37,935 nucleotides of DNA from assembly GCA_964594245.1 (NCBI GenBank), contig CAZQML010000220.1, forward strand, positions 1-37,935, written 5' to 3'. Shown in pieces: positions 30,004 through 33,650 of the stretch (position 1 is the first letter of the stretch; every line of letters starts with the position of its first letter). Made by a program: the position numbers and the translations under genes. Below the pieces are notes generated by a model. That model saw only the letters and a program-made list of their open reading frames with translations, was not told the origin of the DNA and made no database searches. The stretch comes from an uncultured Dehalococcoidales bacterium. GTDB lineage: Bacteria; Chloroflexota; Dehalococcoidia; GIF9; AB-539-J10.

Positions 30004-30032
30004 TTGACATTCGTGAAGGAGGGAACTAGAAT
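30004..30032 (+). promoter_or_regulatory. Near-consensus sigma70 promoter of the tubulin-like gene
   Basis: TTGACA (30004-30009), exact 17-nt spacer, TAGAAT (30027-30032). The ATG at 30039 lies 6 nt after the -10 element. Confidence 0.55.
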
Positions 30033-30038
30033 AGCGCC

Positions 30039-31211
30039 ATGAAGCTGCTGGTAATAGGACTTGGACAATGTGGCGGGCGGATCGCCGATAGATTCGCTCG
30101 CTTGAACAAGAGAGGGCATGCCCTCCGCGGGATGGACACTCTCGCCGGAGTGTTCGCAGTCAACACGGATGTGACGGACCTCAGCGGACTGCGTACGATC
30201 AAACCTGACTACAAGCATCGCATACTCATCGGTGCGCAACGTACGAACGGCCATGGCGTGGGGAAGATCAGCGAACTGGGTGCCGAGATAGCGAACGAAG
30301 ACGTCGACAAGATAGTCGATGCGATTCGCACGGCCGAAGGATTCTACGAGACTGACGCCTTCCTGCTGTGCGCCGGAGCTGCGGGCGGTACAGGATCTGG
30401 CGCCATAGGGGTGCTGACCAAGCACCTGAAGGAACGGTATATCGGGAAGCCTGTCTATGACGTGGTGGTCCTGCCGTTCCGCCAGGAGGAGACCACTGAG
30501 ACCAGAACCATCTATAACACGGCAACGTGCTTGAAGTCGACGTACCTGGTCGCTGATGCCGTGTTCCTGATTGACAATCAGCGCTATGTGAAGAAAGACG
30601 CCCCCGCCGAGAACAACCTGAACACTATCAATGCCAGAGTGGCGGAGCCGTTCTACAACATGCTGTGCGCGGGCGAGGAGACCAAGAGCCGCTTCGTTGG
30701 CTCCAAGACACTCGATGCTGGAGACATCATCCAGACTCTAACCGGGTGGACAGTTATCGGAGGTGGTATGTCGAGGCTCGAGCGACGACTGCCGTTCTGC
30801 GGCCCGAGGCGTGACTTTCGTGACAAGATGATTGAAACCAGCCGGGCCTCGCACGCGATGGATCAAGCCATAAGCGAGCTGTCAATGACGATTGACCCGA
30901 GCGATGCGGGAAGGGCTCTGTATCTCCTTACGGCCCCTGCCAAAGAGATGAGCATGGACATTCTCAAGCAGCTCGGAGACAACCTCAAGAGCCTTGCGCC
31001 CAACGCCCTCATCCGGAGTGGTGACTACCCGCGGGATAGTCGGCAGGTTGACGTGACTCTTGTCATGTCGGAGATTGGCAGCGTTCGAAAGGTAACGGAC
31101 TACTTCACCAAGGCGATCGACCTCATCTCGGTGATGAAGGCGAAACGCGGGCTCGGCTATCAGACGAGAAAGCTCGAGGAGTCCTTCGATGAGATTCCCG
31201 TGCTGCTATGA
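30039..31211 (+). CDS. Tubulin/FtsZ-superfamily GTPase, CetZ/tubulin-like (not canonical FtsZ)
   Basis: 390 aa beginning MKLLVIGLGQCGGRIA (T1 loop). Other motifs are AVNTDVTDL, GHGVGKISELGAE, the tubulin signature AGGTGSG (aa 115-121), VFLIDNQ and the T7-like LDAGDIIQTL. The C-terminal tail is ..SFDEIPVLL. Confidence 0.8.
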   Translation: MKLLVIGLGQCGGRIADRFARLNKRGHALRGMDTLAGVFAVNTDVTDLSGLRTIKPDYKHRILIGAQRTNGHGVGKISELGAEIANEDVDKIVDAIRTAEGFYETDAFLLCAGAAGGTGSGAIGVLTKHLKERYIGKPVYDVVVLPFRQEETTETRTIYNTATCLKSTYLVADAVFLIDNQRYVKKDAPAENNLNTINARVAEPFYNMLCAGEETKSRFVGSKTLDAGDIIQTLTGWTVIGGGMSRLERRLPFCGPRRDFRDKMIETSRASHAMDQAISELSMTIDPSDAGRALYLLTAPAKEMSMDILKQLGDNLKSLAPNALIRSGDYPRDSRQVDVTLVMSEIGSVRKVTDYFTKAIDLISVMKAKRGLGYQTRKLEESFDEIPVLL

Positions 31212-31246: not shown

Positions 31247-31279
31247 GAAGTCCCCTGGCTGTACCAGCCAGGGGACTTC
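31247..31279. terminator. Bidirectional hairpin between convergent genes
   Basis: Perfect 15-bp stem GAAGTCCCCTGGCTG / CAGCCAGGGGACTTC with a 3-nt loop. It sits between the stop of the tubulin-like gene (31211) and the stop of the 192-aa repeat gene (31308). There is no strong U-tract on either side. Confidence 0.5.
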
Positions 31280-31307: not shown

Positions 31308-31886
31308 CTACCTGCGGGCCTTGGTGAACACTGTCCATGTGCGCGCCATAGCCTCTCCGTGTACCTGGCGAGCCTTCTTCTCGGCTTCGTCTCTCTCTCT
31401 CAGCGATTGTGAGACGACGTCGTCATACGCCTTCTTGGCTTGGGCAACGTTGTCGTCATATGCTTTGCGAATCTGCGCAGTGCTCGCCTCGAACGCATGC
31501 TGAGCCTGAGCCAGGTCGTCTTCCATCACCTTCTTTGCCTGTGCGAGGGAAGTCTCGTACTGCCCTCGTGCCCGGCCTGTGGCGTCCATAGAGCCCCGCC
31601 GGGCCTTGTCGAGGGCGTCTGAGTACGCCTTCTCGGCTTTCTGCTCCTGGTCTTTGTAGGCGTTCTCCAGCTGGTGCTCCGCCTGGACGTACGCCATATA
31701 GGCCGCTACGGCACGTTGTTGGGTTTCGTCCAGGGCATCAACCATCGCCGAATCTTCCGCCGCTGGAGGCTTCTTCACGTCTTCAGCCTGCGCCTTGGTT
31801 TCTGCCGCTGTTGGAGGCCTCTTCTCGGTGTCAGTCTGCGCCCTGCTTTCCGGCGCTTTCTCGCGCACTTCCTCTACGTTGGCCAT
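31308..31886 (-). CDS. Hendecad-repeat (11-residue period) Ala/Lys/Asp/Gln-rich helical protein, 192 aa
   Basis: ATG 31886 is preceded by AAGGAGGG. About 12 consecutive 11-mers have a conserved aromatic/hydrophobic residue at positions 66, 77, 88, 110, 121, 132, 143, 154, 176 and 187 (for example KKAYDDNVAQA and KKAYDDVVSQS). Confidence 0.7.
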   Translation of the reverse strand: MANVEEVREKAPESRAQTDTEKRPPTAAETKAQAEDVKKPPAAEDSAMVDALDETQQRAVAAYMAYVQAEHQLENAYKDQEQKAEKAYSDALDKARRGSMDATGRARGQYETSLAQAKKVMEDDLAQAQHAFEASTAQIRKAYDDNVAQAKKAYDDVVSQSLRERDEAEKKARQVHGEAMARTWTVFTKARR

Positions 31887-31985: not shown

Positions 31986-33557
31986 CTATCGTTCGCCTTC
32001 CTCGCTGTCATCGGACCTTTCGAACGGCTTGTCCTTCTCTGATGCGTACATTCTGGAGAGGAACTCCAGCCTCGCTCGCATGTCTCGCTTTGCTTCGTGC
32101 GGCGGCGGCTTCAGTCTCGACTCGTCCGGCTCGATTCGGCTGAGGGCCTCCTCGAAGAGCTTTGAGGAGGGGAGTTCGGATGGCTCTTCGACCCCCTGGC
32201 TGGCCTTCTCCGCACCCGCGACGGCTTCTTCAAAGACGCGAGCGGATGCGTGAGCGGCCTTACGTGCGGTCCTGGTGGTCTCCTCAGCCTTCTTGATGGC
32301 CTCCTCGAGAACCTTTGCCGATGCAACTACGGTGTCGCGCGCCGCGGTGATTGATGCCTCGGTGGCTTCTCTCACCACGCGTCTCGACTCCGCTGCTGCC
32401 CGCATAGCTTCGGTGCCGATTTCCTCGGAGCGACGCACTGCCTCCGCTGCCAGCCCCCGCGCTTCCTCCTCCGCCTCGGCGGCGAGCTTCCCGATCTCTT
32501 CAGCTCGGGCTGCCGATGCCTCGGATGCCTTCAGGGCGTCTTCCGCCAGCCTCATGGCTGTCGACGTAACCTCTTCGCTGCGTCTAACGGCCTCGCGAGA
32601 CGAACGCTCCGCTTGCTCGGCCTTCCCCATGGCCTCCTGCGAAGCACGAGTCGCGGACTCGACTGCTTCCCTGCTTGCCCTTACCGTTTCTTCAATGCGG
32701 GCGACCGCCTCGTGAGACGACTTGATTTGCTGGCTGGCCTCACGCTGGCTTAGCTTCCCTGCCTCCTCCGCTCGCCGCAGGGCAGTTTCAAACGCACGGC
32801 TGGACTGCGCGGACGACGCATTCGAGGCAGCAATTGCCTCTTCTGCCCGAGCAAGCGCCTCTTCAAATGCCCCGGAAGACAGAGCGGCTGAATCGGAGGC
32901 CGACTGGAAGACTCTCTCCGCCCTGGCGACAGCCTTCGCGGAGGCCTTCTCAGCGTCTCGTGAGGCCTTCTCGGACGAGCGGGCGAGTCGCTCAAGTGTA
33001 ATCTGGGCCTCACGAGAGGCTTTGATGGCCTCCTCTGAAGCCCGTGTAGCCTTCTGGCCCTCTTCTTCAGCGCGCGCCACCGCTTGCTGGGCCGCGCGCC
33101 GGGCTTCCTCCGCCTTCTCCTGCGCAACCTGCGAAGCCTTCTCGACCCTGCTCAGCAGCTTCTGGGAGGAAGAGACTGACTCCACCACGGAATCCATCGT
33201 CTGATTCGCAATCACCTCAAGCTGCGCAACCGCCTCTTCAAATGAGCGAGCGCTCTCCTCGGCTGCCTCAGTGGACGACCGAACGGCCTGCTCGGCTGCA
33301 GCGATGGTGTCTTGCGCCCTCGAGATGGTCCCATCCACCGACTGGCTGACCTCGGACGCCTTCCTCACAGCGTCCTCGGCCATCTTTCGGGCCTCTTCCG
33401 CCGTGGCAAGCGCCTCGCGGCCGATGTTCTCGATTCTGGTGACGGCCTGTTCTGAGGCTTTGCGAGAATGCTCTCCAGCCTGGCGTGCAGCCAGGTTCAT
33501 CTGCTCGGCTCTTGCTACCGCCTCTTCGAAGGAAGGTGACTCTCTGTCTCTGTCCAT
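31986..33557 (-). CDS. Large Ala/Glu/Ser/Arg-rich repeat protein (about 25-residue period, predicted coiled coil), 523 aa
   Basis: A continuous 523-codon ORF with GGAAGG Shine-Dalgarno and its own promoter. The motif [FLS]-E-E-A-[VLIM]-x-[RK]-A-E-E recurs (FEEAVARAE, FEEALARAEE, FETALRRAEE, LEEAIKKAEE, FEEAVAGAE, FEEALSRIE). Confidence 0.75.
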   Translation of the reverse strand: MDRDRESPSFEEAVARAEQMNLAARQAGEHSRKASEQAVTRIENIGREALATAEEARKMAEDAVRKASEVSQSVDGTISRAQDTIAAAEQAVRSSTEAAEESARSFEEAVAQLEVIANQTMDSVVESVSSSQKLLSRVEKASQVAQEKAEEARRAAQQAVARAEEEGQKATRASEEAIKASREAQITLERLARSSEKASRDAEKASAKAVARAERVFQSASDSAALSSGAFEEALARAEEAIAASNASSAQSSRAFETALRRAEEAGKLSQREASQQIKSSHEAVARIEETVRASREAVESATRASQEAMGKAEQAERSSREAVRRSEEVTSTAMRLAEDALKASEASAARAEEIGKLAAEAEEEARGLAAEAVRRSEEIGTEAMRAAAESRRVVREATEASITAARDTVVASAKVLEEAIKKAEETTRTARKAAHASARVFEEAVAGAEKASQGVEEPSELPSSKLFEEALSRIEPDESRLKPPPHEAKRDMRARLEFLSRMYASEKDKPFERSDDSEEGER

Positions 33558-33621: not shown

Positions 33622-33650
33622 ATTGTAGTCACACCACTTGTTATTATCAA
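33622..33650 (-). promoter_or_regulatory. Sigma70 promoter of the repeat-protein operon
   Basis: On the minus strand: TTGATA (33650-33645), 17-nt spacer, TACAAT (33627-33622). The ~58-nt leader contains an 8-bp hairpin (33581-33609). Confidence 0.5.

Follow-up and report, generated by a model that had tools for sequence, protein, structure and literature searches.

The window analysed in this work, a stretch of 37,935 nucleotides from an uncultured Dehalococcoidales bacterium (contig CAZQML010000220.1), carries a gene for a 523-aa helical protein, here called the rod (P0001), next to a gene for a CetZ-like GTPase of the tubulin/FtsZ family (P0003). The repeat pattern noticed earlier in the rod was confirmed and the interpretation then given to it partly supported; we read the rod as a probable coiled-coil cytoskeletal partner that has an unusual 25/7 register (25 residues to seven helical turns) and accompanies a CetZ-type tubulin. 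The rod gene follows one particular CetZ paralogue through inheritance, rearrangement and loss, and its product is probably an undescribed structural partner of a bacterial tubulin cytoskeleton.

All 15 genomes of the genus have a rod orthologue, with an internal stop (one TAG) only in G011, and further orthologues occur in several additional genera within the family. The ratio of non-synonymous to synonymous substitution rates (dN/dS) against the two closest orthologues was 0.22–0.23 for the rod gene, 0.03–0.04 for the CetZ-like gene and 0.34 for the 192-aa gene at the same locus; comparison of the sequences indicates that the rod gene is real and under purifying selection. Long open reading frames (ORFs) also lie over the rod on the plus strand. 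The explanation of the rod as a spurious ORF was rejected, these frames being by-products of the GCN/GAR-rich frame, and the minus-strand frame was taken as the true one because conservation and dN/dS favour it. The stretch 32133–33536, in which an earlier sequence-only reading had placed a repeat protein, falls inside this ORF (31986–33557, minus strand). The composition described there, dominated by A, E, S, R and K, was recovered (115, 89, 63, 57 and 26 of 523 residues, respectively; 22 % Ala, 17 % Glu, 12 % Ser and 11 % Arg). The protein has no transmembrane segment or signal peptide, as had been stated (the maximum hydropathy mean over 19 residues was 0.70), and the Pro-rich acidic tail that had been quoted matches its sequence.

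The related loci belong to the Dehalococcoidia, phylum Chloroflexota, and share with the window a 25-residue rod, a FEEAVARAE head, an RLxFLxxMY helix with an acidic tail and an adjoining CetZ-like gene. Orthologues from 80 loci were 505–758 aa long, and a relative in another family of the order was 925–964 aa. Among 75 full-length orthologues the best-conserved parts were the two ends, namely residues 10–31 and the C-terminal IESRLxFLAxMY helix. Most columns of the head were 80–90 % conserved, with A17, E18 and A24 invariant in alignment A1, as were R496, L497, L500, M503 and Y504 of the C-terminal helix (family consensus IESRLxFLAxMYA); the acidic tail was kept in nearly all orthologues. An ESCRT-III-type MIM peptide was considered for the C-terminal helix, which has RLxxL after a Pro-rich linker, and was rejected: the MIT domain (PF04212) was not found in the genome, and the motif also differs from MIM1.

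The 25-residue repeat and the predicted structure of the rod

The sequence-only reading had proposed about 18 repeats of 25 residues, divided 11+14, in a mixed heptad/hendecad register. Formal autocorrelation (BLOSUM62, residues 1–470, against 500 shuffles) gave z-scores of 12.4, 8.3, 8.0 and 8.05 for lags of 25, 50, 75 and 100 residues, respectively, with sub-peaks at lags 7, 11, 14 and 18 (z = 4.3–6.6). Stacking from residue 6 gave 18 consecutive 25-residue rows, free of insertions and deletions up to residue 455, with the register at its weakest over residues 63–105. The dipeptide A-[VLIM] had been reported to recur every 25 residues; the spacing stood and one of the listed sites did not, residue 184 being A-Q. 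The Kyte–Doolittle power spectrum of residues 6–455 contained one dominant peak, at 3.565 residues (25/7.01), whose power of 557 compares with at most 96 among 200 shuffles; power off the peak was 20 at 3.50 residues and 6 at 3.667. From the sharpness of this single peak it follows that the apolar stripe holds one phase through 450 residues. Within the unit, positions 1, 4, 5, 8, 11, 12, 15, 19, 22 and 25 are apolar, in steps of 3-4-3-4-4-3-4 that make up 7+7+11. Positions 4, 5, 8, 12 and 19 are apolar in 12–16 of the 18 units, and A4, A8 and E9 are conserved at 76–83 % family-wide.

When a unit profile was run on the 75 orthologues, successive spacings of 11 (1022 times), 14 (768 times) and 25 (384 times) made up 96 % of the total, and because these spacings dominate across the orthologues the 11+14 substructure was regarded as real. 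Lag 25 was the best lag in 78 of the 80 rod orthologues; the periodicity belongs to the whole rod family, not to the window protein alone. Spectral peak, stacking, autocorrelation and orthologue unit spacings all agree with the 25/7 register that had been proposed.

An AlphaFold2 model of the monomer, built with 12 orthologues as input, contains helices at residues 16–259 and 263–452, a coil linker in which the final LFEEALSRIE unit is predicted to form a short helix (465–473), and a helix at 490–505. The model is consistent with the long, weakly supercoiled helical rod suggested by the sequence-only reading, and about 437 residues are predicted to form one continuous amphipathic α-helix whose apolar stripe repeats with each 25 residues, or seven turns. 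The predicted local distance difference test score (pLDDT) was below 50 at residues 63–82 and 256–267 and 37–47 in the linker, and residues 491–500 were among the 10-residue blocks with the highest values (68). A sustained apolar period within 3.5–3.67 residues (the peak at 3.565) and the modelled helices place the protein with coiled coils and long amphipathic rods; the strength of its seam excludes it from the single α-helix (ER/K) class, that is, charged helices without an apolar seam. By calculation, the 437-residue helix would be about 65 nm long and the 25-residue unit 3.7 nm, and the 25/7 stripe would wind into a left-handed supercoil whose pitch is about 33 nm, around twice that of a heptad coil, if a free helix of 3.63 residues per turn is assumed. 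On a helical wheel the apolar face is about 160° wide, with an Ala stripe (positions 4, 8, 11, 15 and 22) beside a bulkier one (5, 12, 19 and 23). The net charge of the rod region is −15.

The likeness to spectrin or EzrA that the sequence-only reading had offered did not survive. An EzrA/spectrin-like scaffold was rejected, as the rod has no N-terminal transmembrane anchor (19-residue hydropathy maximum, 0.70), its period is 25 with no stronger super-repeat of about 100 residues, and there is no sign of three-helix bundles and no Pfam match. AlphaFold instead models a continuous helix, and the spectrum shows just one coherent stripe, of 3.565 residues.

A protein of the representative library bears on the oligomeric state. 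The sensor kinase P0018 (876 aa) has the arrangement REC(weak)–PAS–[about ten 25-residue units]–HisKA–HATPase_c, with z = 17.7 at lag 25, and its architecture indicates that the 25-residue repeat is used there as a signalling-helix spacer. In histidine kinases the segment between PAS and HisKA is a parallel dimeric coiled coil. Because the same 25-residue rod joins PAS to HisKA in P0018, a parallel dimer is favoured for the rod, by inference only.

As had been stated earlier, the window rod could not be assigned to a named family, and no significant match was found in Pfam, NCBIfam or PDB sequences. The search of PDB sequences returned only designed helical repeat proteins (E ≥ 0.01), reflecting composition. 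A word-indexed protein search yielded one weak match with the rod and three with the family alignment, candidates being saturated by low-complexity words. A HMMER scan of 1.84 billion representative proteins yielded 141 matches, mostly short C-terminal metagenome fragments, with no informative domain fusion among them except P0018. Phasin_2 (PF09361, gathering cut-off 24.9 bits) was detected in distant orthologues, above the cut-off in L089 (8.1e-15, 55 bits, five stretches) and below it in L046 (22.7 bits) and L067 (20.2 bits). The L089 match was judged to go beyond composition because the reversed and shuffled sequences had no Pfam match at E ≤ 1. The window rod had no Phasin_2 match at E ≤ 1 and none was found in its genome; nor was PF07167 (PhaC_N, polyhydroxyalkanoate synthase) found in that 91 %-complete genome, class III synthases not being part of the search.

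Further proteins with the module were also observed. In the Dehalococcoides-type genome G241, 25-residue rods of 853 aa (L126:4555-7116, minus strand; z = 14.4 at lag 25) and 487 aa (L126:7227-8690, minus strand; z = 6.6) are encoded in tandem; both end in a hydrophobic C-terminal segment (SWEWISILVIINLSIVFAAVLLATAFGALI) and look like tail-anchored membrane forms of the rod module. A short rod paralogue with an RLEFLDRMY tail (P0004, 373 aa, L104:5001-6122) occurs in a genome that also holds L094; its gene lies beside a peptidase gene and a carboxylesterase gene, not beside a CetZ-like gene.

Linkage of the rod gene to one CetZ paralogue

The 390-aa product of the CetZ-like gene matched PF00091 (Tubulin, 1.1e-32) and PF21011 (CetZ_C, 3.7e-12), with 4b46 as the best PDB match (1e-39), a domain content and closest structure that liken it to CetZ1 and CetZ2 of Haloferax volcanii. 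Synteny of the rod with this tubulin-like gene, raised in the sequence-only reading, was borne out: a CetZ-like gene is adjacent in 79 of the 80 related loci, and the sole remaining locus starts at a contig end. The flanking genes for a nitrilase and nnr were retained in just 17–18 of the 80. In about ten loci the CetZ gene lies on the opposite side of the rod gene, still adjacent to it.

CetZ-like genes were found in 138 of the 151 genomes of the order. Within this order the rod was present only alongside a CetZ of the window type (at least 59 % identity), contig breaks being allowed for. Genus g23 (21 of 31 genomes with a CetZ match) and single genomes of other genera had the second paralogue only (52–55 % identity) and no rod; these rod-less genomes are related to one another and do not represent independent events. 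All paralogues without a rod neighbour formed one clade in the CetZ tree (Shimodaira–Hasegawa-like approximate likelihood ratio support 100 %), nested among the linked ones, with the direction of change unsure since the FtsZ root is a long branch. On average the linked CetZs are basic (pI 8.5, net charge +4.5), the unlinked paralogues near neutral and the rods acidic (net charge −21.5). The opposite charge of rods and linked CetZs is suggestive, not decisive.

The pair extends beyond the order. Three complete class-level genomes of 1.4–1.5 Mb carry a Dehalococcoides-specific 16S primer site. A pattern for this site had no match within the window's own order, which places the window in a different GTDB order from Dehalococcoides. 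Reading of the neighbourhood in one of these genomes revealed a 441-aa rod gene tail to tail with a 382-aa CetZ-like gene, and in the other two, matches to rod and CetZ lie at an equivalent spacing. The tail of the 441-aa rod reads RLEYLAKMYA, the protein shares 24 % identity with the window rod, and the adjoining CetZ is 58 % identical to that of the window; the lag-25 peak of this rod was measured on a near-identical library representative, P0022. No homologue of the 192-aa protein was found in the Dehalococcoides-type genomes, either between rod and CetZ or elsewhere, and because they keep the pair without it, rod and CetZ were considered the core pair. A sister genus has rods of 758–900 aa, with a variant tail (NRMEILEQMF) and an adjoining CetZ.

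Published proteomics of Dehalococcoides mccartyi BTF08 found the tubulin btf_0551 and the nearby hypothetical protein btf_0548 to be abundant only in disc-shaped pure cultures and to drop when cells were barrel-shaped (PMC8163811). These data were rejected as evidence on the rod, since gene spacing marks the BTF08 tubulin as the unlinked paralogue: btf_0551 lies 44 locus tags from FtsZ (btf_0595), and the unlinked CetZ paralogue of a Dehalococcoides genome lies comparably far, about 49 kb, from an ftsZ copy, with no rod gene within the roughly 8 kb read on each side.

Two occurrences of the whole trio (rod, small protein and CetZ) were recorded separately. A complete Dehalococcoidales chromosome (CP070842.1) carries it twice, at 0.89 Mb and 2.26 Mb (L082 and L083), and the near-identity of the copies indicates a recent duplication. 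A 3.6-kb contig binned as Candidatus Woesearchaeota (CAZWNN010000058.1, L077) bears the trio with a CetZ 55 % identical to that of the window; most probably this contig belongs to the Dehalococcoidia and was placed in the wrong bin, and is not a case from an archaeon.

Possible roles of the rod

On balance we lean towards the reading that the rod is a parallel coiled coil serving to cross-link CetZ filaments, to space them or to anchor them, in cells for which no MreB or SEDS gene was found; the 91 %-complete window genome had no match to MreB, to a SEDS wall synthase (FtsW/RodA type) or to SepF. The protein would be a cytoplasmic structural element of the CetZ-type tubulin cytoskeleton of Dehalococcoidia. 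Two chains may pair in parallel and in register to give a weakly left-handed, nearly straight coiled coil of about 65 nm, with the FEEAVARAE head and the RLxFLxxMY helix on its flexible Pro-rich linker as putative docking sites. The ends would contact CetZ filaments and, where it is present, the 192-aa hendecad protein, and cross-linking, spacing or anchoring of the filaments beneath the membrane of a wall-less cell would help to set its shape. We infer both the binding to CetZ and the role in shape from sequence data. Such a protein would be comparable to EzrA, ZapB and ZapA, which are likewise coiled-coil proteins encoded with, and presumed to act on, a polymer of the tubulin/FtsZ family, making cross-linking, spacing or anchoring likely. 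It differs from EzrA in having neither an N-terminal transmembrane anchor nor spectrin-like three-helix repeats, and from ZapA and ZapB in being far longer, and it has no sequence match to any of the three. Its partner would also be a CetZ-like paralogue and not the division FtsZ, which is encoded elsewhere with FtsA.

Several points weigh against this proposal. Adjacency of genes does not by itself show that rod and CetZ bind. Judged by dN/dS (0.22 against 0.03), sequence change is much more rapid in the rod than in CetZ, and rod lengths run from 441 to about 960 aa. Confidence in the single-chain AlphaFold model was low (mean pLDDT 59, predicted template modelling score 0.20), as is usual when one chain of a coiled coil is modelled alone. 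A mostly-Ala seam of about 160° is atypical of a simple two-stranded coil, and a bundle or a surface-binding helix would fit equally well. Subunits of tubulin and FtsZ filaments are spaced at 4.0–4.4 nm, and because the rise of 25 residues is 3.7 nm a lateral binder with one repeat per subunit is not favoured.

We think it rather unlikely that the rod is itself a filament former similar to the intermediate filament (IF)-like proteins crescentin, FilP and Scy, building a cortical lattice through side-by-side and end-to-end assembly. CetZ would then act in the same pathway, perhaps placing or remodelling this lattice, and would not itself be the filament that the rod decorates. The wide apolar face with its two adjacent stripes would offer two packing interfaces, charges alternate regularly within the 25-residue unit, conserved ends would be expected for head-to-tail joining, and a membrane-attached lattice would suit the tail-anchored 25-residue rods of a Dehalococcoides genome. 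Scy and FilP are themselves non-heptad periodic coiled coils, with a 51-residue repeat, which counts in favour of this alternative. The rod resembles them in its strictly kept non-heptad period, and resembles all three proteins as a long cytoplasmic rod made almost entirely of coiled-coil-type helix, for which a role in cell shape is plausible. Its period, however, is 25 residues (7+7+11; 3.571 per turn) and not 51 as in Scy and FilP or 7 as in crescentin, no sequence similarity to these proteins was found in Pfam or the PDB, and the rod alone is tied to a tubulin-family gene. The strict link to one CetZ paralogue, and loss together with it, would be unexpected of an independent filament system, and a short invariant C-terminal helix on a flexible linker resembles a partner-docking peptide, not an IF-type tail.

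A tropomyosin- or stathmin-like regulator or ruler, lying along the CetZ protofilament with one unit per subunit and imposing filament length or curvature, appears improbable to us. The exact phasing of the repeat through 450 residues would be explained by it, as would the conservation of A4, A8 and E9, an acidic rod set against a basic CetZ, and a variable rod length (about 440–960 aa) beside a constant CetZ length. With tropomyosin and stathmin the rod has in common an exactly periodic long helix that repeats one conserved unit many times, and a gene placed beside that of a polymer-forming protein. The 3.7-nm unit is, however, shorter than the subunit repeat of 4.0–4.4 nm, so that the filament would need to curve toward the rod. 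Many orthologues break the strict 25 register (11-11-11 runs; 18-, 22- and 36-residue steps), and the conserved E9 would be equally explained by i/i+4 salt bridges with R/K13. The rod also has no homology to tropomyosin or stathmin. Little credence is given to the rod as a register-keeping template for a bacterial tubulin filament, in which each 25-residue unit would touch a single CetZ subunit along the concave face of a curved protofilament. If that were true, a cortical CetZ arc would owe its length and curvature to how many units the rod contains, a number between about 16 and 35 depending on the lineage, and the disc shape of wall-less Dehalococcoidia would be dictated by a ruler of the tropomyosin or stathmin kind in place of a wall.

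It is highly improbable that the rod is a phasin- or apolipoprotein-like amphipathic coat lying flat on a hydrophobic or lipid surface (a granule or the inner leaflet of the membrane): the control-backed Phasin_2 match of L089, the one distant orthologue over the Pfam cut-off, a weak ApoLp-III match of the Dehalococcoides-type P0022, an Ala-rich apolar face and the Ala/Glu/Lys-rich amphipathic helices shared with the Phasin_2 proteins of polyhydroxyalkanoate granules and inclusions would suit such a coat, but the window rod and its genome lack a Phasin_2 match, no N-terminal domain of a polyhydroxyalkanoate synthase was found in that genome, the net charge of −15 would disfavour contact with anionic membranes, the period is 25/7 and not the 11/3 of known surface-lying helices, the rod is five times longer than Phasin_2 proteins, and its linkage to CetZ would be left unexplained.

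The locus and its significance

The features of the locus are collected in the table. The 192-aa protein consists of a disordered N-terminus and one 147-residue helix (residues 45–191; AlphaFold pLDDT 95–97) of 12 hendecads, with z = 8.5 at lag 11 and a terminal TWTVFTKARR; a strong ribosome-binding site (AAGGAGGG) lies ahead of its gene. About 10 nt ahead of the start codon of the rod gene the sequence reads GGAAGG, a Shine–Dalgarno-like pattern match. The 12-bp hairpin at 31250–31276 is likely to be a bidirectional terminator; a terminator scan did not list it, as no T-run follows. The CetZ-like protein ends in FDEIPVLL, and its gene has a promoter-like site at 30004–30032.

Table. Features of the rod locus, numbered from the first nucleotide of the window
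Feature	Coordinates	Strand	Remarks
Rod gene (P0001)	31986..33557	minus	523-aa ORF and translation; 56.5 kDa, pI 5.1, net charge −21
N-terminal head, conserved	33465..33530	minus	residues 10–31, FEEAVARAEQMNLAARQAGEHS; family consensus FEEAVARAExLSxAARxAAExS
Rod, 18 in-register 25-residue repeats (11+14, i.e. 7+7+11)	32193..33542	minus	residues 6–455
Pro-rich acidic linker	32091..32192	minus	residues 456–489; net charge −5
C-terminal amphipathic helix, conserved	32043..32090	minus	residues 490–505, KRDMRARLEFLSRMYA; contains RLEFLSRMY; AlphaFold helix
Acidic tail of the rod protein	31989..32042	minus	residues 506–523
Promoter-like site TTGATA-17-TACAAT	33622..33650	minus	about 65 nt 5′ of the rod ATG; 10/12 consensus matches, pattern match only
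192-aa gene (P0002), downstream of the rod gene	31308..31886	minus	ORF; follows the rod gene in 73/80 loci
Perfect 12-bp hairpin GTCCCCTGGCTG..CAGCCAGGGGAC	31250..31276		between the converging stops of the 192-aa and CetZ-like genes
CetZ-like tubulin/FtsZ-family GTPase gene (P0003)	30039..31211	plus	390 aa, pI 8.45; runs towards the 192-aa and rod genes

Other genes of the tubulin superfamily were noted. FtsA and FtsZ are encoded together on another contig of the window genome. A second CetZ-like paralogue of this genome (C123:708-1883, plus strand; 391 aa, 53 % identical to P0003, tail ELPLL) has no coiled-coil neighbour and sits between genes for a membrane protein and a PiT-like transporter. 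A third tubulin-like gene, divergent in sequence (367–372 aa, L120–L123), occurs in families f2 and f3 of the order to which the window belongs. It directly follows three genes whose sequences resemble the AmmeMemoRadiSam trio (a radical SAM enzyme, a MEMO-like protein and AMMECR1), and at three of these four loci a RarA-like gene comes after it; this context is conserved and has no connection with the rod.

In Haloferax, CetZ1 controls the change from rod-shaped to disc-shaped cells (PMC10869688). An earlier paper noted that Dehalococcoidia have CetZ-like genes and that coiled-coil proteins are encoded beside other tubulin-like genes of archaea, the rod family not being among them (PMC9871819). 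Our literature search found no paper describing the rod protein, and no description of a coiled-coil partner of this family for archaeal CetZ.

CetZ has so far been treated as archaea-specific, and we know of no partner protein established for any CetZ-family tubulin, archaea included. Dehalococcoides mccartyi, which is cultured and important in bioremediation, has no peptidoglycan and forms disc-shaped cells. The conserved rod gene travels with one CetZ paralogue through the sampled Dehalococcoidia lineages, Dehalococcoides genomes included. Periodicity of this kind is rarely seen in coiled coils, and the predicted 450-residue helix, whose 25/7 stripe stays coherent throughout, is a clean example from nature. 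Its 25-residue module appears to have been put to further use in a histidine kinase and among tail-anchored membrane proteins. The rod is thus a testable candidate for shape maintenance in Dehalococcoidia and may offer a first handle on CetZ-associated proteins.

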